Virus record (IMG/VR): IMGVR_UViG_2667527591_000023
Reading direction: 5' to 3' (one strand)
DNA: 34,158 nucleotides
From: a virus
Taxonomy: Duplodnaviria > Heunggongvirae > Uroviricota > Caudoviricetes
The position numbers were made by a program, and so were the translations under genes. The notes beneath the pieces are model-generated. The model had not been told where the DNA came from and did not search any database. It saw nothing but the letters and a program-made list of their open reading frames with translations. Shown in pieces: positions 1,428 to 33,871 of the stretch. Position 1 is the stretch's first letter. Each line of letters begins with the position of its first letter.

Positions 1428-2084
1428 CTATTTAACATACTTGACTGTTAAACTTATAATTTTACCAATTATTTCAATGTCTTCTATCTTGCATTCGAAG
1501 GCTCTGTTTCCACCCTCGACGAAGATTCTTCCACCGGGTAAACGAGTAATGTCACGGATCGTTATTTCGCCATCAATACTTATTACCCATTTACCATCAC
1601 GTATATCATCAAATTCTTTATCACAAATAAATTCAGAATTGTTATCTGTGATGACAAAAGGTTTTTTAAACGCAGAGGGTAGAAATCCCTTATCAAAAAT
1701 ATAAAAACCGTCTTTCTGCAATGCTCCATCAGACAATAAATATTTTTCTACTTCTATAGTATTTGTATTTGCTGATGCTTGCTTTGAACCATGCCCTGTT
1801 GTTAGCCAATTAAGCGAGGTGCCCGTTTCAAGGGCGCACTGGATTACCCAATCTGCTGGAAAAATATCACGCATATAGCGCGTTGCCATGGTGCTCTTAG
1901 AAACACCTAAATGATCACAGAGAGCCTGACGGGTACCGAACCCATATGCTTCAACTAAACGTTCTATGGCTTTCTTACCGCCGCTATTGAAATCCACAAG
2001 TCCTCCAAAGAAATCCAAAATTCGTTGACAGATTCCAAAAGCGATCTTAAAGTTGAACCAGAAGTGTTCTTTTGGAGCCTTCAC
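1428..2084 (-). CDS. cI: Phage 186-type CI immunity repressor; start codon uncertain (track ORF begins at GTG, internal GTG/TTG starts possible)
   Basis: Motif LVEAYGFG....L.HLG.S.S..A.RY.R...P..W...CALETG..L.WL.TG matches the 186 CI N-terminal domain as I recall it. Confidence 0.8.
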   Translation of the reverse strand: MKAPKEHFWFNFKIAFGICQRILDFFGGLVDFNSGGKKAIERLVEAYGFGTRQALCDHLGVSKSTMATRYMRDIFPADWVIQCALETGTSLNWLTTGHGSKQASANTNTIEVEKYLLSDGALQKDGFYIFDKGFLPSAFKKPFVITDNNSEFICDKEFDDIRDGKWVISIDGEITIRDITRLPGGRIFVEGGNRAFECKIEDIEIIGKIISLTVKYVK

Positions 2085-2142
2085 TACTAATCACGACAAA
2101 CAACGGCTCGCCACAAGCCATATCTAGAAGGAATGTTGCCTT
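2085..2142. promoter_or_regulatory. Divergent early switch region between cI and apl/cox (186 pR/pL equivalent); operators not resolved
   Basis: Intergenic gap between divergently transcribed repressor and first early gene. Confidence 0.35.
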
Positions 2143-2346
2143 ATGACACCTAACATTTCAATTACTCTGAATACACCACATGTCACAATCGAACGTTATA
2201 GCGAACTGACTGGCCTTTCTATTGATACGATTAACGACATGTTGGCTGATGGCCGACTACCTCGTCATCGTCTTCGTAAAGACAAAAAACGTGAAAAGGT
2301 AATGATTAACCTGGCTGCTCTGACTGTTGATGCTTTGTCTGCTTAA
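2143..2346 (+). CDS. Apl/Cox-like small DNA-binding protein (excisionase/early regulator), 67 aa
   Basis: First gene of the rightward early operon; small basic protein; position equivalent to 186 apl / P2 cox. Confidence 0.55.
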
Positions 2347-2410
2347 TAGACGTCTATTTTCGCAATAAGACGCTGAGTTCGATTTTGCGATAAGTTCGGA
2401 GTTGAAAACC

Positions 2411-2920
2411 ATGTTTGATTACCAAGTTTCCAAACATCCACATTTTGATGAAGCCTGTCGTGCATTCGCACTGCGCCACAATCTGGTGCAACTGGCAGAA
2501 CGTGCGGGCATGAATGTGCAGATTCTGCGGAACAAGCTGAACCCAGCTCAACCTCATTTATTAACCGCACCAGAAATCTGGCTGCTTACCGATCTGACTG
2601 AAGATTCAACGTTGGTAGATGGTTTTCTGGCACAGATTCACTGCCTGCCATGCGTACCAATTAATGAGGTGGCAAAAGAGAAACTGCCACATTACGTCAT
2701 GAGTGCAACCGCAGAGATCGGGCGTGTTGCTGCAGGTGCGGTATCTGGCGATGTAAAAACCAGTGCAGGTCGTCGTGATGCTATCAGCAGCATTAACTCT
2801 GTAACACGACTGATGGCGTTGGCTGCTGTTTCATTGCAGGCCCGTTTACAGGCTAACCCTGCGATGGCGAGTGCAGTTGATACCGTGACTGGCCTCGGTG
2901 CTTCATTCGGTTTGCTGTGA
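2411..2920 (+). CDS. cII: Phage regulatory protein CII (186 CII-like), 169 aa from ATG 2411
   Basis: [39 protein letters not shown] resembles 186 CII; GGAG RBS before ATG 2411. Confidence 0.85.
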
Positions 2921-2927
2921 GGTGCTT

Positions 2928-3224
2928 ATGCTGACGAAAGAACCATCATTTGCATCGCTGCTGGTAAAACAAAGCCCGGCAATGCACTACGGTCACGGCT
3001 GGATCACGGGTGAGGATGGAAAACGCTGGCATCCATGTCATTCACAAGATGAATTGCTGTCTAAATTGACCACGAGGAAACGGAGAAAGTCCAAATGTAT
3101 GCGGCAGAAAGTGAAGTGGTTTATCAGTTTCGTTACAGAGGGGAGAGTTATTCAGTACCTGAAGATGATTTGCTCTGTTGCTATCCGTCATTGTCGGGCG
3201 ATGGCAGTTACTTTTTCGCGTTAA
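2928..3224 (+). CDS. Hypothetical early protein; C-terminal ~43 codons overlap the next gene out of frame, so the true gene may be shorter or carry a lost stop
   Basis: ORF with GAGGTG before ATG 2928; N-terminal part looks protein-like, tail looks like out-of-frame read-through. Confidence 0.35.
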   Translation: MLTKEPSFASLLVKQSPAMHYGHGWITGEDGKRWHPCHSQDELLSKLTTRKRRKSKCMRQKVKWFISFVTEGRVIQYLKMICSVAIRHCRAMAVTFSR

Positions 3225-3319
3225 AGGATGGGACATTTTTACGGGGAGAGCAGGTTAAAGAGACGATACGAAAAAATGTATCTCCTCTTGAGCGTTACCG
3301 TAAGAACAAAGAACGATAG
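3095..3319 (+). CDS. Hypothetical early protein (74 aa)
   Basis: GGAG RBS before ATG 3095; protein-like composition. Confidence 0.55.
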   Translation: MYAAESEVVYQFRYRGESYSVPEDDLLCCYPSLSGDGSYFFALKDGTFLRGEQVKETIRKNVSPLERYRKNKER

Positions 3320-3341
3320 CTGCGTTTGGGGGATATGAAGT

Positions 3342-3683
3342 ATGGCAATTAATGGCGCTGCAGCAACTGTTCCATTAAGCCCCGGTGAACGCCTGAATGG
3401 ACTTAATCACATTGCGGAGTTAAGGGCGAAAGTTTTTGGCCTGAATATTGAGTCAGAGCTTGAGCGGTTTATTAAAGATATGCGTGATCCACGGGATATC
3501 AATAATGAACAAAATAAACGGGCACTGGCTGCCATATTCTTTATGGCAAAAATTCCAGCTGAACGTCATAGCATCAGCATTAATGAGCTGACCACTGACG
3601 AAAAGCGGGAGCTGATTAAAGCAATGAATCATTTTCGTGCAGTGGTGAGCTTATTTCCCAGACGGCTAACCATGCCGAATTAA
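3342..3683 (+). CDS. Hypothetical early protein (113 aa)
   Basis: ORF in early operon with upstream G-rich RBS. Confidence 0.6.
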   Translation: MAINGAAATVPLSPGERLNGLNHIAELRAKVFGLNIESELERFIKDMRDPRDINNEQNKRALAAIFFMAKIPAERHSISINELTTDEKRELIKAMNHFRAVVSLFPRRLTMPN

Positions 3684-3750
3684 CCAACTAATGAAATTAA
3701 TGGCGTAAACCCGCCGGGCATCCCTTTATCTAAATTCAGGAGAATTGATT

Positions 3751-3984
3751 ATGCGTAATATTGAAACCCTCTCGACTAAAACCGGACCGGATGACGCAGG
3801 GCTTAATATTTTACTGACAGAAGCTCGTCTGGAAGAACGCCGGGCAAGGGCTGAAGCAATGGCAGCTCGCCTTGATAGCCTGGCGTGTCATATAACATCC
3901 CGCCAGCTAAACCACGTCGAAGCGGCAGAACTGCTGCGTGTGAATGCTGAAGCAATCCAGAACGAAGCGCAGGAGATCCACTGA
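3751..3984 (+). CDS. Hypothetical early protein (77 aa), predicted helical/coiled coil
   Basis: AGGAG RBS then ATG 3751; stop overlaps the next start (TGATG). Confidence 0.6.
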   Translation: MRNIETLSTKTGPDDAGLNILLTEARLEERRARAEAMAARLDSLACHITSRQLNHVEAAELLRVNAEAIQNEAQEIH

Positions 3985-4211
3985 TGGCTGATGCAATGGA
4001 TCTCGTACAGCAGCGCGTTGAAGAAGAACGCCAGCGTCATATCCGTGCTGCCCGCGCCAAAACGCCGGGCGTGTCCCGCGTGCTTTGCATTGAGTGTGAA
4101 GCAGCAATTCCGCCAGCACGCCGCCGTGCCATTCCTGGAGTGCAGCTTTGCATTACCTGCCAGGAAATCGCAGAGCTGAAAGGCAAACATTACAACGGAG
4201 GTGCTGTATGA
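3984..4211 (+). CDS. TraR/DksA-family C4 zinc-finger protein (75 aa)
   Basis: C-x2-C ... C-x2-C motif (CIECEA .. CITCQ); translationally coupled on both sides. Confidence 0.8.
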   Translation: MADAMDLVQQRVEEERQRHIRAARAKTPGVSRVLCIECEAAIPPARRRAIPGVQLCITCQEIAELKGKHYNGGAV

Positions 4212-5065
4212 GCACCATCCTGAAATGGGCGGGAAATAAAACTGCCATTATGTCCGAACTGAAAAAACACCTTCCTGCTGGCCCGCGACTGGTTGAACCT
4301 TTCGCGGGTTCCTGTGCTGTGATGATGGAGACGGATTACCCCAGCTATCTTGTTGCGGATATTAATCCTGATTTAATCAACCTCTATAAAAAGGTTGCTG
4401 CTGATTGTGAGGCGTTTATATCTCGTGCCAGAGCTTTATTTGAGGAAGCAAACAGGGAGGTGGCTTATTACAACATAAGGCAGGAGTTTAATTACTCCAC
4501 TGAAATTACTGATTTCATGAAAGCGATATATTTTCTGTATCTCAATCGTCATGGTTACCGTGGGTTATGTCGCTATAACAAGAGCGGGTATTTCAACATT
4601 CCCTACGGTAATTATAAAAATCCGTATTTCCCTGAAAAAGAAATTCGCGCATTTGCAGAGAAAGCCCAGCGGGCAACGTTTATCTGCGCCAGCTTTGATG
4701 AAACGCTGGCGATGTTGAAGGCGGGGGATGTGGTGTATTGCGATCCGCCGTATGACGGTACGTTTTCCGGCTATCACACTGATGGTTTCACTGAAGATGA
4801 CCAGTATCACCTGGCATCCGTTCTTGAACATCGGTCATCAGAAGGACATCCGGTCATTGTTTCTAACAGTGACACATCCCTGATCCGTTCGCTGTATCGC
4901 AATTTTACTCACCACTACATCAAGGCAAAACGCAGCATCGGCGTAGCAGCTGGTGAGAGTAAATCTGCAACAGAAATCATCGCTGTTTCTGGGGCGCGCT
5001 GCTGGGTGGGATTTGATCCTTCGCGTGGCGTGGATAGTTCTGCCGTGTATGGAGTGCGTGCATGA
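4208..5065 (+). CDS. dam: Orphan DNA adenine methyltransferase, Dam-like (N6-adenine, probably GATC), 285 aa
   Basis: KWAGNK, EPFAGS, DPPY motifs; colinear with E. coli Dam; ATGA overlap with upstream and downstream genes. Confidence 0.9.
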
Positions 5066-7476
5066 GCCATGCTGATATGAACAACTGCAGCGGCTTTAAC
5101 GAGGCCGCCGCAGCATTCTCATGGAACAGCCCGAAAAAGGCTATTAACCCTTATCTGGACCCGGCGGAAGTTGCGCCGGTTTCTGCGCTTTCAAACCTGA
5201 TCACTCTGTACGCTGCCGATAACGAGCAGGAACAACTGCGCCGCGAGGCACTGAGTGATCAGGTCTGGGAGCGTTATTTCTTTAATGCATCCCGTGATCC
5301 TGTCCAGCGCGAAATGGAGCAGGATAAGCTCATTAGCCGGGCAAAGCTGGCGCATGAGCAGCAGCGTTTTAATCCGGACATGGTCATACTGGCGGACGTT
5401 AACGCCCAGCCTTCCCATATCAGCAAGCCGCTGATGCAACGTATTGAATACTTCAGCAGCCTGGGCAGGCCAAAGGCTTATTCCCGCTATTTGCGTGAGA
5501 CGATTAAGCCATGTCTGGAACGACTGGAGCATGTACGCGACAGTCAGCTATCCACTTCTTTTCGCTTTATGGCAAGCCATGAAGGGCTGGACGGCCTGCT
5601 GATCTTGCCTGAAATGAGTCAGGATCAGGTGAAACGCCTGTCTACTCTTGTCGCTGCGCATATGAGTATGTGTCTTGATGCCGCTTGTGGTGATTTGTAT
5701 GCCACCGATGATGTTAAGCCAGAAGAAATCCGCAAGACATGGGAAAAGGTGGCAGCAGAAACCCTGCGACTGGATGTCATACCGCCTGCGTTTGAGCAAC
5801 TCCGCCGGAAAAGAAACCGCCGTAAACCCGTACCCTATGAACTCATTCCGGGTTCGCTGGCGCGTATGTTGTGCGCCGACTGGTGGTATCGGAAATTGTG
5901 GAAGATGCGTTGTGAATGGCGGGAAGAGCAGTTGCGTGCTGTTTGCCTGGTCAGCAAAAAAGCATCTCCCTATGTCAGCTATGAAGCCGTGATGCATAAA
6001 CGTGAGCAGCGCCGTAAGTCGCTGGAGTTTTTCCGTTCTCATGAACTGGTGAACGAAGACGGCGACACGCTGGACATGGAGGATGTGGTAAACGCCAGCA
6101 GCAGCAACCCTGCGCATCGCCGCAATGAGATGATGGCCTGTGTTAAAGGTCTGGAGCTTATCGCGGAAATGCGCGGTGACTGCGCCGTTTTCTACACCAT
6201 CACCTGTCCGTCACGTTTCCATTCCACGCTAAATAACGGCAGGCCCAACCCGACCTGGACAAATGCGACGGTAAGACAAAGCAGTGATTATCTGGTCGGC
6301 ATGTTTGCTGCATTTCGTAAGGCGATGCACAAAGCCGGATTGCGCTGGTATGGCGTGCGGGTGGCTGAGCCGCATCATGACGGCACAGTTCACTGGCACC
6401 TGTTGTGTTTCATGCGCAAAAAAGACCGCCGCGCCATTACTGCATTGTTGCGTAAGTTTGCTATCCGTGAAGACCGCGAGGAGCTGGGTAATAACACGGG
6501 GCCACGCTTTAAGTCTGAGCTGATAAACCCGCGCAAAGGAACGCCGACTAGCTACATCGCGAAATACATCAGTAAGAACATTGACGGGCGTGGTCTGGCT
6601 GGCGAGATCAGCAAGGAAACGGGTAAATCTCTGCGTGATAACGCTGAATACGTTAATGCCTGGGCGTCTCTGCATCGTGTTCAGCAATTCCGCTTCTTTG
6701 GCATTCCGGGGCGTCAGGCTTACCGTGAACTGCGATTGCTGGCTGGTCAGGCGGCAAGGCAACAGGGTGACAAAAAAGCAGGTGCGCCGGTACTGGATAA
6801 CCCGCGCCTTGATGCCATTCTGGCTGCAGCTGATGCTGGTTGTTTTGCCACCTACATCATGAAGCAGGGCGGCGTACTGGTTCCCCGTAAATATCACCTC
6901 ATCAGAACCGCTTATGAAATCAACGAAGAGCCGACCGCCTATGGCGATCACGGCATTCGTATTTATGGCATCTGGTCACCCATTGCAGAGGGTAAGATCT
7001 GCACTCATGCAGTGAAGTGGAAAATGGTTCGTAAGGCCGTTGACGTTCAGGAGGCGGCAGCCGACCAGGGCGCTTGCGCCCCTTGGACTCGTGGCAATAA
7101 CTGTCCCCTTGCTGAAAATTTGAACCAACAAGGGAAAGACAAATCAGCTGATGGGGATACCAGAACGGATATCACCCGCATGGATGACAAGGAGTTGCAC
7201 GATTACCTGCACAGTATGAGCAAAAAAGAGCGCCGGGAACTGGCAGCAAGATTACGCCTGGTTAAACCGAAACGGCGTAAAGACTACAAACAGCGAATTA
7301 CAGAGTATCAGCGTCAGCAGCTCGTCTATGAACTGAAGTCCAGAGGATTTGATGGCAGCGAGAAAGAGGTCAATTTGCTCCTTCGCGGCGGCAGTATTCC
7401 GTCAGGAGCAGGCCTGCGTATCTTCTATCGGAACCAGCGTTTGCAGGAAGATGATCAGTGGCGGAACCTGTATTAA
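5062..7476 (+). CDS. A: Replication initiation endonuclease (P2 gpA / 186 RepA family), 804 aa
   Basis: Large early protein; HxH-type block ([10 protein letters not shown]) and size typical of P2 gpA-type rolling-circle initiators. Confidence 0.85.
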
Positions 7477-7569
7477 TTACGCGGGTTAACAATTCGTGCT
7501 ATTAATAATACCAGGCATATCAGGCTGATGAACGTAAAAAAACGTTTTACATCAGTAAGATTATTATAT

Positions 7570-7587
7570 ACTGTAAATATAAACAGT
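7570..7587 (+). promoter_or_regulatory. LexA (SOS) box aCTGTaaatataaACAGt, with TATAGT -10-like element just downstream
   Basis: CTGT-N8-ACAG with AT-rich spacer, about 45 bp upstream of ATG 7630. Confidence 0.7.
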
Positions 7588-7629
7588 GGTTATACATATA
7601 GTATTGCGTGTGGTGTCATAGGAGGAAAG

Positions 7630-7818
7630 ATGCAGGACTATTTTTTGGAGTCTTTGAAGCTCCAGCGCATTGATTTTTTTCTTAAGCTTGTAGCGGCTAG
7701 TGAGTGTAGTGATGAAGAGAAGGGGCTGGCTCTGCAGTGGGTTTCTGAATTGACTGATGAACTCATGGCAAAAATCAGAACCCACGAATACAACCGCTCA
7801 ATGGATGTCATCAGCTGA
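7630..7818 (+). CDS. Small SOS-operon protein (62 aa), possible N-terminal part of a Tum-like antirepressor
   Basis: AGGAGG RBS before ATG 7630; immediately downstream of LexA box; an alternate frame stays open from 7757 into the DinI-like gene. Confidence 0.55.
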   Translation: MQDYFLESLKLQRIDFFLKLVAASECSDEEKGLALQWVSELTDELMAKIRTHEYNRSMDVIS

Positions 7819-7828
7819 GGTGACTTTT

Positions 7829-8062
7829 ATGCGCATTGAAATAATGATCGATAAAGAGCAGAAGATTAGCCAGTCTACCCTGGACGCCCTTGAATCCGAG
7901 CTTTACCGCAATCTGCGCCCCCTGTATCCCAAAACGGTAATTCGCATTCGCAAAGGTAGCTCTAACGGTGTGGAACTAACCGGACTGCAACTGGACGAAG
8001 AAAGAAAACAAGTGATGAAAATTATGCAGAAGGTGTGGGAAGACGACAGCTGGCTGCATTAA
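7829..8062 (+). CDS. DinI-family protein (77 aa)
   Basis: MRIEIMIDK ... conserved acidic C-terminus (WEDDSW) resembles E. coli DinI. Confidence 0.8.
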   Translation: MRIEIMIDKEQKISQSTLDALESELYRNLRPLYPKTVIRIRKGSSNGVELTGLQLDEERKQVMKIMQKVWEDDSWLH

Positions 8063-8196
8063 GAAACGTTGCTGGCGTCTGAACTTGCTTCTGGCGTCAG
8101 CAAGGTTGAACAACGAGCCCTTGCGAGGCGTTAGCTCTGTAGTGCATGTCTATGCCGCATGAGATCGCATGATCGTTTGAGGATCGTTTTTGCTAA

Positions 8197-8224
8197 GGCC
8201 CGCCAGAACTGGCGGGCTTTTGCG
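8197..8224 (+). terminator. Rho-independent terminator after the SOS operon
   Basis: GCCCGCCAG-aact-CTGGCGGGC hairpin followed by TTTTG. Confidence 0.7.
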
Positions 8225-8266
8225 TAGATCATGCAGGTGCATGAAAACCACTACATAAAGCGGGCA

Positions 8267-8285
8267 GGCGTAGCGGGGATACGAG
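8267..8285. other. Putative cos (cohesive end) site
   Basis: GGCGTAGCGGGGATACGAG resembles my recollection of the P2 19-nt cohesive end, at the position expected between the A-distal region and Q. Confidence 0.35.
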
Positions 8286-8370
8286 CGCGCGCAACGGGGT
8301 GAAATGGTGAAAATCCGGCGCAATCTCCGGCACGCTGGCGGCTTCAATTGGTGAGGGTGGGGGAGCGGCA

Positions 8371-8410
8371 GAAAAAAAGAAGCGCCCCGCAGAATGCTGC
8401 TGGGGCGCTG
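8371..8410 (-). terminator. Rho-independent terminator downstream of Q (minus strand)
   Basis: Imperfect hairpin AGCGCCCCGCAG/CTGCTGGGGCGCT preceded on the plus strand by A7 (a U-tract on the minus-strand transcript). Confidence 0.6.
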
Positions 8411-8443
8411 TGAGGGGTAGTCTTGTTGTCGTGGTGCGGTGGG

Positions 8444-9499
8444 TCAGTCGTTGCGCTTGTCTTCTGTCAGTCCCAGCGTGTACGGCTCAAAGCGGATCAC
8501 TTCTTCTCCAAGCCAGTCGTTAAGCTCCTGCAGTCGCTTCTGCAGCGGCATCAGCTCGTTGCGGACAAAGACGCGGCTGGCCTTTTCCACATCACCAAAG
8601 CCGCCGGTATTGTTGGGAATAATGCCCATCATCTGCGGCGGTACGCGGTGCGCTGCCATCATGTCATCGCGGCTCACGTTCTTGATGTTCAGAAACTCAT
8701 CCTTTGCCGCAACCTCCGATAACGGGATGATCTGGATGCCGTCCTTTTTACCGTTGGGTGAGTACATAAACAGGTTACGGAAGTTGCCCGGCCCTTTGGC
8801 GCTTTTCATTGCCTGGCGGATATTGTTCACGTCCTCCTGATTCTGTGCTGCGTCGGTCATGTACATGATGAAACCCGCATGGCTGCCGTTGATGTAATAC
8901 TTCCGGCGGAACAGCGTTGCGGACTCGTTGAGCAGGGTTGACGGGATGGCGGAGAGATAGCCGGGCAGCCCGTAAATCTCCTGGTTAATATCCGGCTCCA
9001 GCAGATGAAAGATGTTGCCCTGCGTAAATTCATAGGGCTGCGTGGTCAGGCCATACTGCACAAACCAGTAGGTGTCGAGGTCCACGCCACGGCGTGTGTA
9101 CTTCGCCAGTGCTGGCTCCAGTGAGAGAACGCCGCCGAGCCGGTTGGTGCGCTTTTCCAGATAGGCGTTACCGAACACCAGATAGTCCTGTACGAAACGG
9201 GCAAAAGCCTGCTGGCTGAGCAGGCGGTGCGGGATGTAGGTACTGCTGAGAATGTCACGCTTAACGGCAATCGGTGAGCTGTGATGCACGGCGGCGCGAT
9301 AGGTCCGCGCCAGTCCGTCAAAGCTCACCGGCGGCTCATACCAGCGGTCCATCTGCACGCATTCCACGTAGTCCAGCAATTCGCGTCGGTCTAACACCGG
9401 CACCGGGTCGCCAAAGCTAAACGCCTCTGCCGCAGCGCCGCCAGATTCTGCGTTGTGATCCACCGCTGCGCGGTTGTTCTTGTTTTTACGTTTGCTCAT
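8444..9499 (-). CDS. Q: Portal protein (P2 gpQ family), 351 aa
   Basis: Size and position next to terminase; GGAG RBS; start overlaps upstream stop (ATGA). Confidence 0.9.
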   Translation of the reverse strand: MSKRKNKNNRAAVDHNAESGGAAAEAFSFGDPVPVLDRRELLDYVECVQMDRWYEPPVSFDGLARTYRAAVHHSSPIAVKRDILSSTYIPHRLLSQQAFARFVQDYLVFGNAYLEKRTNRLGGVLSLEPALAKYTRRGVDLDTYWFVQYGLTTQPYEFTQGNIFHLLEPDINQEIYGLPGYLSAIPSTLLNESATLFRRKYYINGSHAGFIMYMTDAAQNQEDVNNIRQAMKSAKGPGNFRNLFMYSPNGKKDGIQIIPLSEVAAKDEFLNIKNVSRDDMMAAHRVPPQMMGIIPNNTGGFGDVEKASRVFVRNELMPLQKRLQELNDWLGEEVIRFEPYTLGLTEDKRND

Positions 9500-10221
9500 G
9501 CCGCCTGCTCCTTGTCAGCCTGGGGCCATTCGCACATAAACAGCATTTTCCAGTCCTCCGGTGATAATTCTTTTTTCATGTCATTCAGCCATTCATCATC
9601 AAAGAGCGCGGCTCCGGTTGCGAGCGTAGCCCCGGATGCTGCAGCGTCATCAGCGGTAAAGGTCATGCAGGTAGTGCTGTTGCGGGCGATCAGATTCTTG
9701 TATTCCTGCCATGCTTCCGGGCTGGGGCTTGGGGTGGTGTAGTAGGTAGCGTGATAGCGCGCGTGCATGGACAGGCTTTTGGCGAGCGCAATCATATTTT
9801 TGGGGGAGTCAGCCCAGGCATACTCTGACACGTAGACGTTTCCATGGAGCGCGGCGGCGAGACTTTCCGGCCCGATAAAATAAATGACCGCACCGTTTGG
9901 GAGTTCCAGATGCGCTTTACCTGATTTTATTTTCCCAAGATGCGTCCAGGCTGCTGCCTCACTTAAAAAAGCTGATATATAGGTTTTGACGGTCAGGGCT
10001 GATGCCGGGGTGCAGCCCAGAAAAATCTGGTTGCGTCCGGTGTGCAGTGCATCGTTCAGGGCTTCGTAGGCGAAAAAGAAATCCGCGCCAGCCTGACGCA
10101 TTTTTGTAAGCACGCGGTTTCTGCTGCGTGCGCCACTGTTCCATTCATGCTGGTAAGCAAAGAAAGGGCGATCTACAGGCAGGCTGGCGGTGGTCATGAG
10201 GTTAGTTGGGGTTGAGTGCAT
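9496..10221 (-). CDS. Terminase large-subunit ATPase-domain paralogue (241 aa) inserted between P and Q; lacks gpP N-terminal region and C-terminal nuclease domain
   Basis: Aligns to central gpP blocks: FAYQHEW/FNYQRHW, RQAGADFFFAYEALNDALHTGRNQIFL / RQIGATFYFAREALIDALLTGRNQIFL, LPNGAVIYFIG / LPNGATLYFLG, YYTTPS / YFSTPS, MLFMCEW / LLMCEF. GGAG RBS; start overlaps P stop (TGATG), stop overlaps Q start (ATGA). Confidence 0.85.
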   Translation of the reverse strand: MHSTPTNLMTTASLPVDRPFFAYQHEWNSGARSRNRVLTKMRQAGADFFFAYEALNDALHTGRNQIFLGCTPASALTVKTYISAFLSEAAAWTHLGKIKSGKAHLELPNGAVIYFIGPESLAAALHGNVYVSEYAWADSPKNMIALAKSLSMHARYHATYYTTPSPSPEAWQEYKNLIARNSTTCMTFTADDAAASGATLATGAALFDDEWLNDMKKELSPEDWKMLFMCEWPQADKEQAA

Positions 10222-11987
10222 CAGAAAATCTCCACAATGTTGCTGGTATTGGCGGCTTCGCCCTGCAGCGGTTCGTTAAACAGTGCGTGCATCGTTGCCC
10301 AGGCCAAATCTGCGTGGCTGGCTTCTTCGCTGCGGCTGGCTTCATAGGTAGGGCGGTTGCCGCTGGCTGTAGTGGCGCGACGGATAGCCATAAAGGATTG
10401 CGCAATGTCGGTGTGCCCGGCGTCAAACTCCAGACGGCGGTGGCTGATAATGTCGTATGCCTTGAGCACCAGTGCGTTTTTGACGTTGGGGTTGTAGACA
10501 AACTCCCGCACCGCAGGAAAGAACGCTTTCACGTTCTCGTAGACACCGTGACCAACGCCGGTCGAGTCGATGCCGATATATGTCACGTTGTACTGCTGCG
10601 TCAGTTTTTTAATGGCATCAGCCTGGGCGCGGAAGTCCATTCCGCGCCACTGGTGACGCTCAAGAATGCGGAACTTACCACCTGGCACGGCTGGCGGTGC
10701 CACCACCACGCATCCGGCGCTGTCGCCGTTCTGCGTACCTTTTGCCGGGTCATAACCGATCCACACTTCGCGCCAGCCAAACGGGCGCAGCGCCAGTGCA
10801 TGAAAGTCGGTCCAGACTTCCCAGCTGTCTACCATGCACGCCTGCAGCTCGCTGAGCGGGAATACGGACGCGAGATCGTCCACGAACTCACACATCAGCA
10901 GATTCTGGTATTCGTCCGGGCTGTACTCCATGCGCAACTGGTCAAGGTCGAACAGGTTACATCCGCCGCGCACCGCATCTTCCACAGTGACTATCTGGCG
11001 GTACTGCCCGTCTGCGCACAGCAGGCCGGGGGCCAGATTGCTGTGGGACAGGTCGATGTCCACCTTATCGGCTTTGTTGCGCCCTCGGTTGAACAGCGCA
11101 CCGGACCAGAACGGATAAGCACTGTGTGTCAGGCTGGATGGCGTGGAAAAATAGGTCTGTCGCCATTTTTTGTGAATAGCCATACCGGAAGCCACTTTGC
11201 GCAGCTCCTGGAATTTCGGTATCCAGAAATATTCATCCAGATACAGGTTGCCGTGGTAACTCTGGGCCGTGCGGGCATTGGTGCCGAGGAAGTAAAGCGT
11301 GGCCCCGTTAGGAAGCACCATCGGATCACCTTTCAGCTCCACCTCGACTTCATTGGCGAAATCGATGATGTACTGCTTAAAGACGTGAGCCTGTGCCTTA
11401 CTGGCAGAAAGGAAAATCTGGTTACGTCCGGTAAGCAGGGCGTCAATCAGGGCCTCACGGGCAAAATAGAAGGTCGCGCCGATCTGGCGTGACTTTAGCA
11501 GGTTGCGGATGCGGTTGGTTTTTCCGGCTTCCCACCAGTGGCGCTGGTAGTTAAACATGGAGGAATGGAAAATTTCTTCCAGCTTCTCAATTTGTTCATC
11601 GGTGAAAACATTCTTTTCCGGCTGACGGCGCGGGCCTTTGTTACGGTTGGCGACGTTAGGGTTTAAGTCGGCTTCGTTGCCGCCATTGTTAAACTTGCCG
11701 ATCCGCGCGTGGCGTTCCGACTGGCGCGCCAGCAGGTCAATTTCTTTGAAATCTTTCCCTTCTTTGTGCTCCTTCATAATGAGCTGGCAGTAGCGTGCGG
11801 CGGTGGTGAGCTGCATCTGATCCAGCGGCCCATAGTCACCCCACTTGTCGCGTTTTTTCCAGCTGTGAACGGTTGCAACTTTCTCGCCCAGCATTTCAGC
11901 AATGCGGGCTACGCGGTATCCCTGAAAGTACAGCAGCATGGCCTGCCGACGGGGATCGAGATCTGCGGGTGTCAGTGTGGTGTTCAT
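10221..11987 (-). CDS. P: Terminase large subunit, ATPase/nuclease (P2 gpP family), 588 aa
   Basis: Size and conserved terminase blocks; heads the leftward late operon. Confidence 0.92.
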   Translation of the reverse strand: MNTTLTPADLDPRRQAMLLYFQGYRVARIAEMLGEKVATVHSWKKRDKWGDYGPLDQMQLTTAARYCQLIMKEHKEGKDFKEIDLLARQSERHARIGKFNNGGNEADLNPNVANRNKGPRRQPEKNVFTDEQIEKLEEIFHSSMFNYQRHWWEAGKTNRIRNLLKSRQIGATFYFAREALIDALLTGRNQIFLSASKAQAHVFKQYIIDFANEVEVELKGDPMVLPNGATLYFLGTNARTAQSYHGNLYLDEYFWIPKFQELRKVASGMAIHKKWRQTYFSTPSSLTHSAYPFWSGALFNRGRNKADKVDIDLSHSNLAPGLLCADGQYRQIVTVEDAVRGGCNLFDLDQLRMEYSPDEYQNLLMCEFVDDLASVFPLSELQACMVDSWEVWTDFHALALRPFGWREVWIGYDPAKGTQNGDSAGCVVVAPPAVPGGKFRILERHQWRGMDFRAQADAIKKLTQQYNVTYIGIDSTGVGHGVYENVKAFFPAVREFVYNPNVKNALVLKAYDIISHRRLEFDAGHTDIAQSFMAIRRATTASGNRPTYEASRSEEASHADLAWATMHALFNEPLQGEAANTSNIVEIF

Positions 11988-21871: not shown

Positions 21872-22315
21872 ATGAACGAATATGTTTATAGCGCAAGGCA
21901 TAATGCTTTTTTCCCTGTGGATATGATTGATAAATATAAATCAGAGGGATGGGATTTATCAGACGCTAAGGAAGTAAATCAAAATATTATCAGTGAGTTT
22001 ATGGATGAACCGCCACAAGGAAAAATCCGTATTGCCGGAGATGATGGGCTGCCTGCGTGGGCAGATATTCCTCCACCCACGCATGAAGAACTTATTGAAA
22101 TTACTGAATCAGAAAGACAGCTACTAATTCACCAGGCCAACGAATACATGAACAGTAAGCAATGGCCCGGTAAAGCCGCTATTGGTCGTCTGAAAGGCGA
22201 TGAGCTTGAACAGTATGGTTTGTGGCTTGATTATCTGGATGCTCTGGAAGTTTTAAACACCTCCAGCGCACCAGATATCGAGTGGCCTAACTCTCCGGAG
22301 GAACAGGCCAGATAA
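21872..22315 (+). CDS. G: Tail-fibre assembly chaperone (P2 gpG / Mu U family), cassette for the current orientation
   Basis: C-terminal motif SSAPDIEWPNSPE typical of Tfa proteins; follows H. Confidence 0.85.
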   Translation: MNEYVYSARHNAFFPVDMIDKYKSEGWDLSDAKEVNQNIISEFMDEPPQGKIRIAGDDGLPAWADIPPPTHEELIEITESERQLLIHQANEYMNSKQWPGKAAIGRLKGDELEQYGLWLDYLDALEVLNTSSAPDIEWPNSPEEQAR

Positions 22316-22886
22316 TAACAGGAGCCGTTGATATATCGACGGCTTGTAGTGCTTTGATGTAGCTCATCCAGGCGATCAGGCTAGCTTTATCTTCATCGCT
22401 GATAATGCCTAACTGTAGTTCTGTCTGCCAGAGACTGATCGTTGTCTGGGCCTCAAGCAGGAGCGCAGCTTTCTGTTGTTCCGCCGCTTCCACGTCCGCC
22501 GCGTTCTGCGCTTCCGTATCTGTCACCCACTCGCGACCGTTCCACGTATCGTAAGGCGTATCAGGTGCCAGCGTGGTGGTGCCTTCCGGGTATTCACCAG
22601 GCAAAGAAACGATCTCCGGCTCGCCTGTTTCAGTGCTGTACACCGTTTCACCACGGTGATCCGCGACGTATTCCCAGGCGGCAAAATCGGCTGTCCGGCA
22701 AATAGCAAAACCCTCTTTGCTCTCGCCGGGGGCGTCAATGCATGAGTTGGCTGGAATACCTACGCCCACGGCCAGATATTCAACAGATATAGAAAGGTAT
22801 TCTCGCGTCTCGTCATCATAGTTAAATACTGTAATATCGCCTGCCTCTGTGGCGATAAGTTCGTTGTTTAATTTTGCCTGTGCCAT
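22287..22886 (-). CDS. Alternative tail-fibre assembly chaperone (Tfa'), used after inversion
   Basis: C-terminal motif DISTAPVIIWPVPPES; convergent with and overlapping the plus-strand Tfa. Confidence 0.85.
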   Translation of the reverse strand: MAQAKLNNELIATEAGDITVFNYDDETREYLSISVEYLAVGVGIPANSCIDAPGESKEGFAICRTADFAAWEYVADHRGETVYSTETGEPEIVSLPGEYPEGTTTLAPDTPYDTWNGREWVTDTEAQNAADVEAAEQQKAALLLEAQTTISLWQTELQLGIISDEDKASLIAWMSYIKALQAVDISTAPVIIWPVPPES

Positions 22887-23419
22887 TATGCAGCCCTCAC
22901 AATGTAGTTAAATGCAACGTTTCGCGGCCTCGTTTCACTACCAAACATTTTTGAACCAAGTGTTGCCTTTGCGGTATATGTCTGCAATACCGTGCCAGTT
23001 GACGGGTTTGGGTTATATTCATTAGTTCCGTTCGGGTAATAAGCCATTGACGCATTGTTATCTATAAAAACAGCCGTCATTGGACCATCTCCGCCAGAAC
23101 TTGGTGAAGTTGGAATCCAGTGCCGGTGATCGAATGACATAGCACCCTGAGCAGAAAGCAAACCTCGCCCGCTATCAGCCCCGCGCCCGTCATCCCAGCC
23201 ACGAATAAATTCGCCTCTTAAATCAGGCAATCTGAGTGCAGGATAGGCCTGAGCCAATTTGGGGTACTGAGAAGCGGTAAACGCTGCTCCATTGCATTTT
23301 AGCCATCCAGTTGGTGGAGTTGCTGACGGCCACGGAACAGGCGCACCAACAGGTAATGCTGAACCTTCTCCCAAACTAACGTTTATGAAAATGCAGAGAT
23401 AACGGCTAACTGGCATCAT
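22886..23419 (-). CDS. Alternative tail-fibre C-terminal exon (H'), promoterless; fused to the H constant region only after inversion
   Basis: PWPS..PP.GWL.CNG..F....YP.L tail-fibre receptor-domain motif; right crossover site lies within its 5' end. Confidence 0.8.
   Translation of the reverse strand: MMPVSRYLCIFINVSLGEGSALPVGAPVPWPSATPPTGWLKCNGAAFTASQYPKLAQAYPALRLPDLRGEFIRGWDDGRGADSGRGLLSAQGAMSFDHRHWIPTSPSSGGDGPMTAVFIDNNASMAYYPNGTNEYNPNPSTGTVLQTYTAKATLGSKMFGSETRPRNVAFNYIVRAA
23365..23392. repeat. Right inversion crossover site (gix/hix-like)
   Basis: CTTCTCCCAAAC..., inverted relative to GGTTTGGGAGAAG at 21480..21492; just upstream of the invertase gene. Confidence 0.7.
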
Positions 23420-23446
23420 CTCCGGTTTTTATTCAGGGGGATGATC

Positions 23447-24013
23447 ATGCTTATTGGCTATGTACGCGTGTCAACAAATGACCAGAACACCGATTTGCAA
23501 CGCAATGCACTGAACTGTGCGGGATGTGAGCGGATTTTTGAGGATAAAATCAGTGGCACCAAGTCCGACAGACCGGGGCTGAAAAAGCTGCTCAGGACAC
23601 TATCGGCAGGAGACACGCTGGTTGTCTGGAAGCTGGACAGACTGGGGCGCAGTATGCGGCATCTTGTTACGCTGATAGAAGAGCTGCGCCAGCGTGGCGT
23701 GAATTTCCGAAGCCTGACTGACAGTATTGATACCAGCACCCCAATGGGCCGTTTCTTTTTTCATGTCATGGGTGCCCTGGCTGAAATGGAACGCGAACTG
23801 ATAGTTGAACGTACCAGGGCGGGGCTGGCTGCAGCTCGTGCTAAAGGCAGAGTAGGTGGACGCCGTCCTAAGTTGACCAGCGAACAGTGGGCACAGATTG
23901 GGCGTTTACTCGAGGCCGGAGAATCAAGACAGCGTATTGCACTGATTTTTGATGTAGGCGTTTCTACCATTTATCGAAAATTTCCGGCAAATAAGAACAA
24001 TAAATCTCCCTGA
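23447..24013 (+). CDS. Serine DNA invertase (Gin/Hin/Pin/Cin family), 188 aa
   Basis: N-terminal MLIGYVRVSTNDQ catalytic-serine motif, resolvase core, C-terminal HTH; alternative ATG at 23441. Confidence 0.93.
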   Translation: MLIGYVRVSTNDQNTDLQRNALNCAGCERIFEDKISGTKSDRPGLKKLLRTLSAGDTLVVWKLDRLGRSMRHLVTLIEELRQRGVNFRSLTDSIDTSTPMGRFFFHVMGALAEMERELIVERTRAGLAAARAKGRVGGRRPKLTSEQWAQIGRLLEAGESRQRIALIFDVGVSTIYRKFPANKNNKSP

Positions 24014-31302: not shown

Positions 31303-31382
31303 CGCTGCCGCCATTTTGTCGCCATCGTTAAAAAACAGTGTTTCTAACATCATGATTTTAAACAGCTTAAATTTCAGGCAAC

Positions 31383-31425
31383 AAAAAACCCATCAACCTT
31401 GAACCGAAATGGCGGGGTTGATGGG
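31383..31425 (-). terminator. Hairpin with U-tract downstream of ybjL (minus strand), possibly shared with the prophage end
   Basis: CCCATCAACC ... GGTTGATGGG inverted repeat preceded on the plus strand by A6. Confidence 0.5.
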
Positions 31426-31538
31426 CTCCACAAAATGGGGACATCAAAGAAAAGCAGTGGCACTAATTAAGACTGATGCCCTGCGGAAAAGTTCTGCGGT
31501 TGTGCAAAAAAAATTTCATTTTCAGGGCAACTTCAGTT

Positions 31539-33224
31539 TTATCCTAATCCTGGCCATACCATGACGATGATTGTCCCTGCCAGCGTCAGCAGGACGTTGG
31601 CGATTGCATAGGTGCCCGCATAGCCCAGCGCCGGGATGTTACTGCGAGCTGTATCACTGATGATCTCCATTGCCGGCGCGCAGGTGCGTGCGCCCATCAT
31701 TGCGCCGAACAACAGTGCGCGGTTCATTCGCAATACATAAGCACCGAACAAGAAACAGATAACCACTGGCACAAGACTGACAATCAATCCGGCAATCAAC
31801 ATCTGACCGCCAATCGCGCCCAGGCCGTTATTAATACCGCTACCGGCGCTCAGACCAACGCCTGCCATAAACACCATTAAGCCGAACTCTTTCACCATGC
31901 TTAATGCACCCTGCGGAATGTAACCGAAGGTCGGGTGGTTAGCGCGCATAAAGCCCAGCATAATTCCGGCGAATAACAACCCGGCAGCGTTCCCCATGCC
32001 GAAACTGAATGTGCTGAACTGGAAGGTGATCATCCCGATCATCAGCCCAATAACAAAGAAGGCGCAGAATGCCAGCAAGTCAGTGACCTGGCTGTGAATC
32101 GAGATAAAGCCGATGCGATCGGCGATGGTTTTTACGCGACGGGCATCGCCGCTGACTTGTAAAACGTCACCTTTGTTAAGCACGACGTTGTCATCTATCG
32201 GCATCTCAATCTGGCTACGAATGACGCGGTTAAGGAAGCAACCGTGATCGGTCAACTTCAGTTGTGCGAGACGTTTGCCCACGGCGTTATGGTTTTTAAC
32301 GACCACTTCTTCAGTGACGATACGCATGTCGAGAAGGTCACGATCGAAAACTTCTTTGCCGTTACGGAAGCTGGGATCGAGTCGTGCGTGGGCGTCGGGA
32401 TAGCCTACCAACGCTATTTCATCGCCCATTTGTAGCACAGCATCACCGTCTGGATTCGCCAGAATCCCGTTACGTCGAATACGTTCAATGTAGCAGCCAG
32501 TTTGTCGATAAATACCCAGTTCACGCAGATTTTTGCCGTCGGTCCAGGCCACCAGCTCCGGGCCGACGCGGTAGGCGCGGATCACCGGTAAATAAACCTT
32601 ACGGTTGGCATCAGTGTCCAGGCCACGTTCGCGGGCGATTTGCTGGGCGCTGGTCTGTAAGTCCTGATGCTGCAATTTCGGCAAGTAACGCGCACCAACA
32701 ATCAAACTCACCAGACCGATTAAATAGGTTAAGGCATACCCGAGGCTCAGATTATCCAGTGCCAGTGAGAGTTGCCTGCTTTCCATGCCGGAATGACGCA
32801 GTGTATCGCCAGCACCGACCAGAACCGGTGTCGACGTCATAGAGCCAGCTAACATACCGGCCGTCAGGCCAATATCCCAGCCAAACAGCTTACCTAACCC
32901 TAAGGCGATCACCAGCGCACTGCCAACCATCACCAGTGCTAACATTAGGTAATTTTTCCCATCGCGAAAAAAAATGGAAAAAAAGTTCGGTCCGGCTTCG
33001 ACCCCGACGCAGAAAATAAACAGCATAAAGCCAAGATTAAGCGCGTCGGTGTTAATGCTGAAATGTTGTTGGCCTAATAACAGCGATACGACTAAAACGC
33101 CAATGGAATTACCCAGTTGGATCGAACCAAGTCGTAATTTCCCGAGACATAGCCCAAGCGCGAGGACCACAAATAATAACAGAATGTAATTCCCATTTAA
33201 CAATTCGGCGACGTTTATATTCAC
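31539..33224 (-). CDS. ybjL: Putative transport protein YbjL (host), 561 aa
   Basis: Multi-TM protein with two central regulatory-type domains; matches E. coli YbjL as I recall it; conserved neighbourhood ybjM/grxA. Confidence 0.9.
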
Positions 33225-33493: not shown

Positions 33494-33871
33494 GTGAAAC
33501 ATAAACAACGTTGGGCGGGGGCAATCTGCTGTTTTGTCCTCTTCATTGTGGTGTGTCTTTTTCTGGCGACGCACATGAAAGGCGCTTTTCGGGCTGCCGG
33601 GCATCCTGAAATCGGTTTGCTATTTTTCATTCTTCCTGGTGCAGTTGCCAGCTTCTTTTCACATCGTAGAGAAGTCCTGAAACCTCTGTTTGGCGCAATG
33701 CTGGCGGCACCCTGTTCGATGCTCATTATGCGGCTGTTTTTTTCACCGACGCGCTCATTCTGGCAAGAGCTGGCATGGTTATTAAGTGCGGTGTTCTGGT
33801 GTGCGCTGGGGGCATTGTGTTTCTTATTTATCAGTAGTTTGTTTAAACCACAGCACAGAAAAAATCAATAA
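33494..33871 (+). CDS. ybjM: Inner membrane protein YbjM (host), GTG start
   Basis: 125-aa hydrophobic protein between ybjL and grxA; AGGAGG RBS. Confidence 0.85.
   Translation: MKHKQRWAGAICCFVLFIVVCLFLATHMKGAFRAAGHPEIGLLFFILPGAVASFFSHRREVLKPLFGAMLAAPCSMLIMRLFFSPTRSFWQELAWLLSAVFWCALGALCFLFISSLFKPQHRKNQ

Follow-up and report, generated by a model that had tools for sequence, protein, structure and literature searches.

Genes for Dam-type DNA adenine methyltransferases are long-known and routinely annotated accessory genes of P2/186-like prophages, and the gene described here is nothing new as a gene. The title of the 1990 paper on retron Ec67 (Hsu, Inouye & Inouye; PMC55184) ascribes a Dam methylase function to the retron element, and the methylase associated with Ec67 is that of phiR67, a prophage related to 186. 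A protein that bears the label 'retron EC67 DNA adenine methylase' shares 95% identity with the one reported below, and both belong to one 90%-identity cluster. Annotated counterparts of this Ec67-type Dam are found in Salmonella phage RE-2010 (gp10; 97.5% identical to the protein described here), in SopEPhi (orf8; 73% identical) and in Klebsiella prophages. The novelty implied by the initial annotation was overstated, dam having been described since the retron-Ec67 paper. Several searches of the literature yielded nothing specific to the Dam of this phage family, and the role of phage Dam in Dam+ hosts has been called poorly understood (PMC7556043).

The window, by which we mean the whole stretch of 34,158 nucleotides that was analysed, represents a 186/Fels-2-like (Peduoviridae) E. 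coli prophage inserted next to rybB/ybjL. It agrees with the prophages of the Ec67-type Dams in the length of the methyltransferase (285 aa), in the gene order DUF2732/zinc finger/dam/A and in a prophage size of about 34 kb; relative to phiR67 it lacks the retron, the cos-proximal hotspot being empty, and otherwise there is no difference of substance. A retron link within the window was considered and rejected, as Rfam gave RybB alone and a retron would not fit between the terminator and cos (8223-8266). The same gene order was found at seven of the eight places read that carry the exact window protein, the eighth being a deleted remnant, and dam is present in 1232 of 5426 complete E. coli genomes (approximately 23%).

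Organization of the dam locus

The features of the early region that concern dam are as follows.

2025-2053, plus strand: pR-like sigma-70 promoter (TTGACA-17-TAAAGT; 10 of 12 matches in a consensus scan), the putative driver of the early lytic operon that includes dam
3751-3984, plus strand: DUF2732 gene, homologue of P2 Orf80 and 186 CP80 (PF10809, 2e-29)
3984-4211, plus strand: TraR/DksA-family C4 zinc-finger gene, 75 aa, homologue of P2 Orf82 and of its 186 counterpart (PF01258, 1.2e-10)
4197-4201, plus strand: GGAGG, ribosome-binding site of dam, within the zinc-finger gene and 6 nt before the ATG (sequence reading)
4208-5065, plus strand: dam, orphan Dam-family N6-adenine DNA methyltransferase, 285 aa plus stop (PF02086, TIGR00571)
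4301-4315, plus strand: motif I of Dam (AdoMet binding), F32-A-G-S-C36, of which F32 and G34 are invariant in the P1 Dmt, T4-type, SI7 and SopEPhi Dams
4556-4615, plus strand: target-recognition hairpin region of Dam, Y117-Y136, equivalent by alignment to Y119-Y138 of E. coli Dam
4742-4753, plus strand: catalytic motif IV of Dam, D179-P-P-Y182 (GAT CCG CCG TAT), aligned to D181-Y184 of E. coli Dam
5051-5054, plus strand: GGAG, ribosome-binding site of gene A, in the final dam codons (..Y-G-V-R-A) (sequence reading)
5062-7476, plus strand: gene A, rolling-circle replication initiator (origin-nicking endonuclease; PF05840, 1.4e-127)
7066-7110, plus strand: ori-like sequence in gene A (..GGCGCTTGCGCCCCTTGGACTCGTGGCAATAACTGT..), without GATC, recognized by a conserved coding motif, A-P-x-x-x-x-N-N-C, that the annotated ori of P2 and of 186 also have

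The span assigned to the methyltransferase in the initial annotation (3984-5065) does include dam, but it covers two genes, the zinc-finger gene at 3984-4211 and dam at 4208-5065. The zinc-finger protein matches TIGR02419 (64.3 bits; cut-off 59.7) and phrog_54 (1.8e-29), and is 67% identical to its counterpart in 186. As read from the sequence, the DUF2732 and zinc-finger genes are joined by a TGATG stop/start overlap (3982-3986), the stop of the zinc-finger gene overlaps the dam start in an ATGA (4208-4211), and the dam stop overlaps the start of gene A in another (5062-5065). The coupling of dam between a TraR-like zinc-finger gene and the replication gene, and its placement in the early replication operon, had been recognized correctly, as the order zinc finger/dam/A and the ATGA overlap on either side of dam attest. 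The YGV end of the product, encoded around the ribosome-binding site of A, is kept even in the SI7 Dam, which is only 42% identical. The GC content of dam is 46.9%, as against 53-57% for its neighbours.

The pR-like site lies between the CI repressor gene (1428-2084, minus strand) and an apl/cox-like gene (2143-2346), as does pR of 186, and the consensus scan revealed no other plus-strand promoter-like site between it and position 8600. The gene order is that of the CI-repressed early operon of phage 186. Because dam lies within this early lytic operon and has no promoter of its own, it should, on this reading of the sequence, be silent in the lysogen. According to the 186 annotation, translation of A appears to require that the upstream ORF (orf84) be translated to its end. 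A terminator early in gene A resembling tM1 of 186 was also sought, and since only a weak hairpin is present at about 5161-5180 (z = -0.07), none is claimed.

The suggestion that the methyltransferase has no restriction partner holds: its neighbours are the zinc-finger gene and gpA, and no restriction enzyme gene was found in the window, either beside dam or elsewhere. The best PADLOC model for the Dam protein is 'orphan methyltransferase' (1.5e-111), and a PADLOC scan of nine neighbouring or unassigned ORFs gave no matches to defence models. The ORFs of at least 100 aa that lack a P2 or 186 homologue are DUF5347, dam, those of the lysis region (the endolysin and an adjoining ORF, the latter assigned by its position), the tail-fibre and invertase genes, and the host genes ybjL and ybjM.

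Dam family membership, motifs and selection

That the gene encodes a complete Dam-type N6-adenine methyltransferase with a DPPY motif is confirmed by profile matches over its full length. The product matches PF02086 at 3.9e-77 (259.8 bits; cut-off 22) across the whole profile (1-253 of 253) and the TIGR00571 'dam' family with 322.8 bits (cut-off 114.85); the E. coli Dam structures 2g1p and 4gol are matched at 2e-73 and the T4-type structure (PDB 1yfj) at 1.4e-17. The score with the chromosomal-Dam equivalog NF008152 is 288.8 bits, under its cut-off of 441. Judged by such comparisons, the prophage Dam belongs to a paralogous branch of the family that is carried by phages, and is not an orthologue of the housekeeping enzyme.

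Careful alignment, which might have exposed the loss of catalytic motifs, gave the opposite result. Both FAGSC of motif I and DPPY are invariant in an alignment of 24 family members whose identity to the window protein is 71-96%, and DPPY is also invariant in the P1, T4-type, SI7 and SopEPhi Dams; the DPPY codons of dam themselves contain a GATC site. The last position of motif I is variable, being Gly in P1, Leu in the T4-type enzyme and Cys in the window Dam. The roles of the DNA-contact residues of E. coli Dam have been described, R124 being the one that chiefly discriminates the fourth base pair (PMC4417163). Six of the seven GATC contacts have their equivalents kept (K9, Y119, L122, R124, P134 and Y138), and the R124 equivalent is invariant. 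The position of E. coli Dam N120 is occupied by Arg throughout the prophage Dam family, by Ser in the T4-type enzyme and by Asn in P1, and five residues are deleted after DPPY relative to E. coli Dam; with these two changes the specificity of the prophage Dam may be altered or relaxed. Homology predicts that the dam product is an active enzyme, most likely with GATC specificity.

The gene is under purifying selection, with dN/dS values of 0.11-0.15 in comparisons with relatives and 146 of 147 homologues intact. Structure prediction with AlphaFold from the alignment of 24 sequences gave a model of poor quality (mean pLDDT 58, with the C-terminal tail, residues 264-285, below 50), but for the assignment the match in sequence to the solved structures of E. 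coli Dam suffices.

GATC content and the region upstream of gene A in related phages

Enterobacteriophages are reported to avoid GATC, the DNA of fast-replicating phages to be under-methylated, and GATC to be counter-selected by MutH (PMC5014478, citing McClelland 1984 and Deschavanne & Radman 1991). In P2 and 186 GATC has the lowest observed/expected (O/E) ratio of all 256 tetramers (0.19 and 0.13, respectively), whereas in the window prophage, with 106 sites in 31.4 kb, it is the tenth most under-represented, with a ratio of 0.72. We compared 367 non-redundant loci, 122 of which carry dam and 245 of which do not. In this contrast, which spans some seven clades of one virus family and is not corrected for kinship, the median O/E is 0.82 for the loci with dam, of which a single one is below 0.6, and 0.36 for the Dam-less loci, of which 204 are below 0.6. 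The clade medians are 0.25 for P2-type, 0.35 for 186-type and 0.56 for P88-type phages, among which there are no Dam carriers save one divergent 186-type locus (L430, whose gpA is 73% identical to that of 186), and this exception has an O/E of 0.91. Medians for the window-, SI7- and Yersinia 42.18-type clades are 0.78-0.87, and the remaining 4-nt palindromes are at 0.84-0.98 in all clades. Within gene A alone, the median is 0 GATC per kb in P2-type phages and 3.6-5.0 per kb in the Dam-carrying clades.

The association between dam and GATC is one-sided, and we report it as such because Dam-less window-type phages are undepleted as well: within the window-type clade there is no difference in O/E between loci with and without dam (0.80 vs 0.78). 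Twenty-two Dam-less loci have an O/E of at least 0.7; 11 of them are window-type phages that form a coherent sub-lineage, with a DNA divergence of 15-35%. Two of the undepleted Dam-less loci were sampled, and neither showed another methyltransferase within 10 kb of gene A.

In every Dam-carrying relative dam and A are on the same strand, and in nearly all of them dam lies directly or within about 2 kb upstream of A; at five loci the estimated start of A falls slightly within dam. Among the window-type relatives dam directly adjoins A in 59 of 67, and does so with an ATGA in 39. In Dam-less relatives the zinc-finger gene is joined straight to A. The same slot in other relatives contains C5-cytosine methyltransferases (PF00145), PAPS-reductase-like genes (PF01507) and a gene of phrog_887, annotated 'queuine tRNA-ribosyltransferase', the last of which may encode a DNA transglycosylase.

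With these patterns in mind we propose, with some reserve, that the Peduoviridae of Dam+ hosts may follow one of two courses, either purging GATC (as in the P2-, 186- and P88-types) or encoding their own replication-coupled Dam (as in the Fels-2/RE-2010-, SI7- and Yersinia 42.18-types), with the slot before A serving as a dedicated, replication-coupled site at which DNA-modification cargo is exchanged across the family. If this is true, the Peduoviridae would constitute a natural experiment on the long-standing question of why phages of Dam+ hosts encode Dam.

Possible roles of dam and comparison with known systems

On balance we lean towards the explanation that the orphan Dam supplements a limiting host Dam, fully methylating replicating phage DNA and lifting the cost of unmethylated GATC; both the timing of expression and, above all, the selective benefit are things that we infer. 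Transcription of dam would come solely from the CI-repressed early lytic promoter, and Dam would be made alongside gpA because the DUF2732, zinc-finger, Dam and A products are presumably translated as a chain of overlapping genes. The phage enzyme would then top up a host Dam activity that is limiting while the phage replicates in a burst, leaving new phage DNA fully methylated rather than un- or hemimethylated. The costs thereby removed in a Dam+/MutH+ host could include nicking or cleavage by MutH, futile mismatch repair, SeqA binding, and restriction by GATC-cleaving enzymes in the next host. Lineages without dam appear to solve the same problem by GATC purging.

Protection from restriction could also be the main benefit, in that progeny DNA would be pre-methylated and so withstand, in the next host, GATC-cleaving enzymes of the DpnII/MboI type as well as those that an overlapping Dam site blocks. 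The biochemical step would be the same as in the supplementation of host Dam and the two are not exclusive, although we think classical anti-restriction unlikely to be the main benefit. The slot that dam shares with C5-cytosine methyltransferase, PAPS-reductase-like and phrog_887 genes does resemble a DNA-modification cargo site; phage orphan methyltransferases have been listed as protecting exported DNA (PMC12707154), and a preprint ranks Dam among anti-restriction genes (bioRxiv 10.1101/2020.06.22.160242). The hosts are Dam+ and phage DNA is partly protected already, however, and anti-restriction by itself does not account for the purging of GATC, and of GATC alone, in the Dam-less P2 and 186, which have the same hosts, unless enzymes of this kind are common. 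GATC-specific restriction enzymes are probably uncommon in the Enterobacteriaceae, and this counts against anti-restriction. Protection of phage DNA via GATC methylation is the sole role put forward initially that has found support, which is comparative and comes from the GATC contrast between the clades; the slot has other DNA-modification genes in relatives as well. The methylation itself is predicted, with indirect support in the normal GATC content that Dam-carrying lineages keep. A quite different view of the locus, that the enzyme is inactive and its ORF persists chiefly because it feeds ribosomes to the start of gene A as a translational coupler, strikes us as scarcely credible. It would accommodate the apparent dependence of A on orf84 in the 186 annotation, the ribosome-binding site of A inside dam, and a motif I that is without its third glycine; but dN/dS values of 0.11-0.15 over the whole protein and invariant catalytic and DNA-contact residues are unexpected for a spacer, the T4-type Dam homologue also lacks the third glycine (Leu), and the direct joining of the zinc-finger gene to A in Dam-less relatives implies that no long coupler is needed.

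The initial annotation had also raised replication or packaging timing, which finds no support, and an epigenetic control over the genes of the lysogenic host, which is unlikely. A regulatory role, in which methylation switches a specific phage site such as the origin, a promoter or a packaging site, has precedents in P1, whose packaging needs GATC methylation by Dam at pac (PMC12707154), and in SopEPhi, whose excision is reportedly favoured by Dam methylation (PMC7380047); moreover, a non-coding block that lies some 90 nt away from the cos-like site is conserved and includes an invariant pair of GATC sites, 11 bp apart, at 8171 and 8182. That pair is equally conserved in a Dam-less relative, though, in a block that is conserved throughout, and eleven related phages manage without dam. 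The ori-like sequence has no GATC closer than about 70 nt, the nearest sites being at 6996 and 7453 (the ori-like site was located via its coding motif, BLAST with the P2 and 186 ori regions having given no match). The cos-like core (8267-8285) is likewise GATC-free, the nearest site, at 8227, is not conserved among relatives, and in neither P2 nor 186 does a GATC occur within 200 nt of cos. We therefore consider a timing role improbable. The cluster of three to four GATC sites at 8163-8227 was examined as a possible Dam target and set aside, since it is not unusual under random placement (P ~0.15-0.23). Lysogenic conversion, through expression of the prophage Dam in the lysogen and consequent changes in host epigenetic states (phase-variable loci, mutation rate), is less probable still. 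Over-production of Dam changes host phenotypes, with mutator effects among them (PMC5014478), and is reported to trigger retron-Sen2 (bioRxiv 10.1101/2020.06.22.160242), and dam is present in 23% of complete E. coli genomes. Yet dam lies deep in the early lytic operon without a promoter-like site of its own, its ribosome-binding site is within the upstream gene and its start overlaps the upstream stop, the homologous 186 operon is CI-repressed and a CI-controlled region lies upstream here, and chromosomal Dam already methylates the GATC sites of the host.

Strains with a prophage dam would possess a second, inducible Dam, which is relevant to the reading of dam mutants and methylomes. The contrast between GATC-purged Dam-less relatives and GATC-normal Dam-carrying ones, in the same hosts, offers a clean system in which to compare the MutH, SeqA and restriction explanations. 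Given the overlap of dam with A and the analogy with 186, knock-outs are best made as catalytic mutants that stay in frame, so as to avoid polar effects on replication.

Among the better-known Dam enzymes, that of T4 and T2 is a phage-encoded D12-class homologue, but it is distant kin (approximately 22-23% identical to the window Dam) and belongs to virulent phages with hydroxymethylcytosine DNA; T4 Dam methylates GATC, and its role in vivo has been called still unclear (PMC12707154). The Dam domain of P1 Dmt is closer (36% identical), and is likewise an orphan phage-encoded D12-class adenine methyltransferase, for which the P1 record annotates GATC N6-adenine methylation; unlike the 285-aa window Dam, Dmt is a bifunctional protein of 754 aa. 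The chromosomal Dam of E. coli (EcoDam; PDB 2G1P) belongs to the same Pfam and TIGR families and is about 50% identical over residues 4-260, whereas the window Dam has a tail of some 25 residues outside the alignment, is prophage-borne and is encoded in a lytic operon. With regard to the slot, the enzymes that occupy it elsewhere (an RNase T-type exonuclease, a PAPS-reductase-like protein, a C5-cytosine methyltransferase and the phrog_887 protein) are unlike dam in kind. In position, dam resembles CP82-CP84 of 186, the two methyltransferases of SI7 and orf8 of K139, all of which lie upstream of the initiator gene on the same strand, often with stop/start overlaps.

A Dam-family gene in the early operon

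The window holds an almost complete P2/186-like prophage and about 2.7 kb of host DNA, and a continuous early operon runs along its plus strand between 2143 and 7476 in the order apl/cox-like, cII, fil-like, DUF5347, DUF2732, zinc finger, dam and A.

Early-operon features around dam
within the operon, +, cII (PF06892)
3751-3984, +, DUF2732 gene
3984-4211, +, TraR/DksA zinc-finger gene
4208-5065, +, Dam-family methyltransferase gene (dam)
5062-7476, +, replication gene A (PF05840, 1.4e-127)

The initial annotation assigned a methyltransferase to 3984-5065; dam does lie inside this span, which, since it also takes in the zinc-finger gene, covers two genes. The overlaps described on both sides of dam are present in the sequence read directly (ATGA at 4208-4211 and 5062-5065), a TGATG overlap is found at 3982-3986, and GGAGG (4197-4201) and GGAG (5051-5054) lie upstream of dam and A respectively.

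The proposed Dam-type identity is borne out by full matches to PF02086 (whole length, 3.9e-77) and TIGR00571 'dam' (322.8 bits; cut-off 114.85), and the catalytic DPPY is kept on alignment at D179-Y182 (nt 4742-4753). The protein is about 50% identical to E. coli Dam, matching structures 2g1p and 4gol at 2e-73, and six DNA contacts of that enzyme are retained (K9, Y119, L122, R124, P134 and Y138), including its fourth-base-pair discriminator, R124, and its intercalating residue, Y119 (PMC4417163). The prophage Dam family differs from E. coli Dam in having Arg for N120 and Cys for the last glycine of motif I (FAGSC), both invariant in the 24 relatives aligned, and in lacking five residues after DPPY. 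The Cys is probably harmless, judging by the Leu at this position in a T4-type Dam homologue; across the P1, T4-type, SI7 and SopEPhi Dams only the F and first G of motif I are invariant. Purifying selection acts on the gene (dN/dS 0.11-0.15), and of 147 homologues 146 are intact. It is distinct from the housekeeping Dam, its score of 288.8 bits lying below the 441-bit cut-off of the chromosomal equivalog. An AlphaFold model built on a shallow alignment (pLDDT 58) was too poor for use.

Elsewhere in the prophage, between integrase and cI, there is a small ORF of 63 aa (1221-1412, -), rich in cysteine and hydrophobic at its N-terminus; its counterparts in three related loci (L004, L006 and L010) belong to the YdcA family (PF27300), and it may serve in lysogenic conversion. 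The right end is marked by a complete RybB small RNA (105 bits; 31380-31458, -), which places the integration site at the 3' end of rybB, beyond which ybjL (31539-33224, -) and ybjM (33494-33871) agree with the E. coli ybj region.

Orphan status and expected expression

The best PADLOC model for the dam protein is 'orphan methyltransferase' (1.5e-111), and no defence model matched among nine neighbouring or unassigned ORFs. Few ORFs of at least 100 aa besides dam have no P2 or 186 homologue: DUF5347, the endolysin with an adjacent unscanned lysis-region ORF, the tail-fibre, tail-fibre-assembly and Hin-type invertase genes, and host ybjL and ybjM. No restriction partner was found in the element by the nine-ORF scan and this review, and the orphan status first proposed stands.

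The Hin/Cin-type serine invertase gene (23441-24013; PF00239, 2.3e-53) adjoins tail-collar and tail-fibre-assembly ORFs of opposite orientation (22287-23419), and 22287-24013 has the look of an invertible host-range segment; P2 and 186 themselves have none. An extra 241-aa ORF (9496-10221, -) between the portal (8444-9499) and terminase (10221-11987) genes is similar to large terminases only in their N-terminal ATPase part (PF03237, 1.2e-14; phrog_3746, 3e-93); it has a counterpart in 186 (annotated 'similar to Orf12') and in some relatives, such as locus L005, but is missing from Salmonella phage RE-2010 and many others.

From 2000 to 8600 the plus strand has a single promoter-like site, TTGACA-17-TAAAGT at 2025-2053, which faces the CI repressor gene, as does pR in 186. 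Dam is therefore expected only after induction or infection, when by this prediction it should be made together with gpA, and epigenetic control of host genes in the lysogen, as once suggested, is unlikely. According to the 186 record, A seems to be translated only if ribosomes read the ORF before it through to its end; the dam/A overlap thus exemplifies a design shared across the family. A search for an equivalent of the 186 tM1 terminator gave no convincing candidate. Further downstream, a LexA-box-like sequence, TACTGTAAATATAAACAGTG (7569-7588), precedes a 62-aa ORF (7630-7818, +; phrog_698) and a DinI/Tum-like gene (7826-8062, +; PF06183), in agreement with the SOS-inducible p95-tum antirepressor operon of 186.

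The pre-A slot and GATC content

Members of the family differ in what fills the slot between the zinc-finger gene and A: Orf83 (DUF5405) in P2, an RNase T-type exonuclease, DUF5405 and a PAPS-reductase-like gene in 186, Dam with a C5-methyltransferase in SI7, and another methyltransferase in K139. In a survey of roughly 440 loci retrieved via gpA, every D12-class Dam shares the strand of A, and in nearly all loci it is directly upstream of A or within about 2 kb; in phages of the window's own clade dam directly adjoins A in 59 of 67, with ATGA in 39 of the 59. Genes between dam and A in relatives (L044:3346-4176, L084:4796-5548, L066:4998-6182, L075:6226-7545 and L094:4102-5112) encode C5-cytosine methyltransferases (PF00145), PAPS-reductase-like proteins (PF01507) resembling 186 CP84, and phrog_887 proteins (2.4e-96 and 9.7e-92; annotated 'queuine tRNA-ribosyltransferase') with no Pfam or NCBIfam match, which may act as DpdA-type DNA transglycosylases. 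By gene content, the slot acts like a cargo site for DNA modification. The dam gene itself is accessory cargo, with a GC content (46.9%) below that of its neighbours and absent from 11 related phages.

GATC is the most under-represented of the 256 tetramers in P2 (observed/expected, O/E, 0.19; 25 sites) and 186 (0.13; 14 sites), and ranks only tenth in the window prophage (0.72; 106 sites). Over 367 non-redundant loci, median O/E is 0.82 in the 122 carrying Dam (below 0.6 in one only) and 0.36 in the 245 without (below 0.6 in 204).

Dam carriage and median GATC O/E by clade (assigned by gpA)
P2-type: Dam in none; 0.25
186-type: Dam in none except L430; 0.35
P88-type: Dam in none; 0.56
Window-type: Dam in most; 0.80
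SI7-type: Dam in most; 0.87
Yersinia 42.18-type: Dam in most; 0.78

Other 4-nt palindromes lie at 0.84-0.98 in every clade, the contrast persists in gene A taken by itself and in the late genes that follow it, and L430, a divergent 186-type locus that has acquired dam, has an O/E of 0.91. The pattern fits the classical view, as relayed in PMC5014478 (citing McClelland 1984 and Deschavanne & Radman 1991), that fast-replicating phage DNA is under-methylated and unmethylated GATC is counter-selected via MutH and mismatch repair. The association is drawn from few independent clades and is one-sided: 22 Dam-less loci are undepleted, 11 of which form a sub-lineage that is well diverged, and the two of these loci sampled yielded no alternative methyltransferase within 10 kb of gene A. 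The comparison does not distinguish between MutH, SeqA and restriction as the underlying cost, and protective methylation by the dam product is plausible from these genomic patterns.

A role in replication or packaging timing, also raised initially, finds no support: there is no GATC within about 70 nt of the ori-like sequence inside A (~7066-7110) or in the cos-like core (8267-8285), and the site nearest that core, 8227, is not conserved. A conserved non-coding block (8066-8225, +) between the DinI/Tum-like gene and cos has two strong hairpins, one (8066-8106, z = -4.6) showing compensatory changes among relatives and the other (8196-8222, z = -5.0) resembling a terminator; they flank a core of about 90 nt, nearly invariant in 17 distinct relatives, in which a GATC pair (8171 and 8182, 11 bp apart) is invariant. 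The block matches no Rfam family, and may be a small RNA, a 3'-UTR element or a regulatory DNA site beside the defence hotspot. In P2-like phages this cos-proximal hotspot houses antiviral systems (Rousset et al. 2022); in the window (8223-8443) it is essentially empty, with only the cos-like site GGCGTAGCGGGGATACGAG (8267-8285) and the portal-gene terminator, whereas relatives with an identical Dam (L005-L011) carry AIPR, KAP NTPase, DUF4145 or unknown genes there.

Relation to known elements

The dam gene of the window is an ordinary one that was described before. Salmonella phage RE-2010, like numerous phages of Klebsiella and Escherichia, shares region 3300-7600 at 96-98% identity; in these phages dam is labelled 'DNA methyltransferase' or 'DNA adenine methylase' and its neighbours 'DksA-like zinc-finger protein' and 'nicking at origin of replication'. 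The identical protein occurs in 317 blocks of a public collection; seven of the eight genomic places read have the zinc-finger/dam/A order, the eighth being a deleted remnant, and three lie beside ybjL, as in the window. In complete E. coli genomes dam is present in 1232 of 5426, always annotated DNA adenine methylase. Some E. coli genomes contain deletion remnants of the window prophage that keep dam (proteins P0008, P0009 and P0078; locus L004:10001-13716), either joined to tail gene D, with predicted Dam and Phage_GPD fusions of 456-496 aa, or followed directly by gpU and gpD.

What is added here is limited to two points, both consistent with established ideas: across the family, Dam carriage contrasts with GATC avoidance, and the pre-A slot can be viewed as a cargo site for DNA modification. 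The 90% cluster of the dam protein (4038 members) includes 'retron EC67 DNA adenine methylase', 95% identical to it, and SopEPhi orf8 is annotated as similar to that same methylase. The 34 kb Ec67 element was reported as Dam methylase-encoding, according to PMC7826664 (citing Hsu et al. 1990), and, as papers citing Dodd & Egan (1996) relate, was later recognised as a 186-related prophage.
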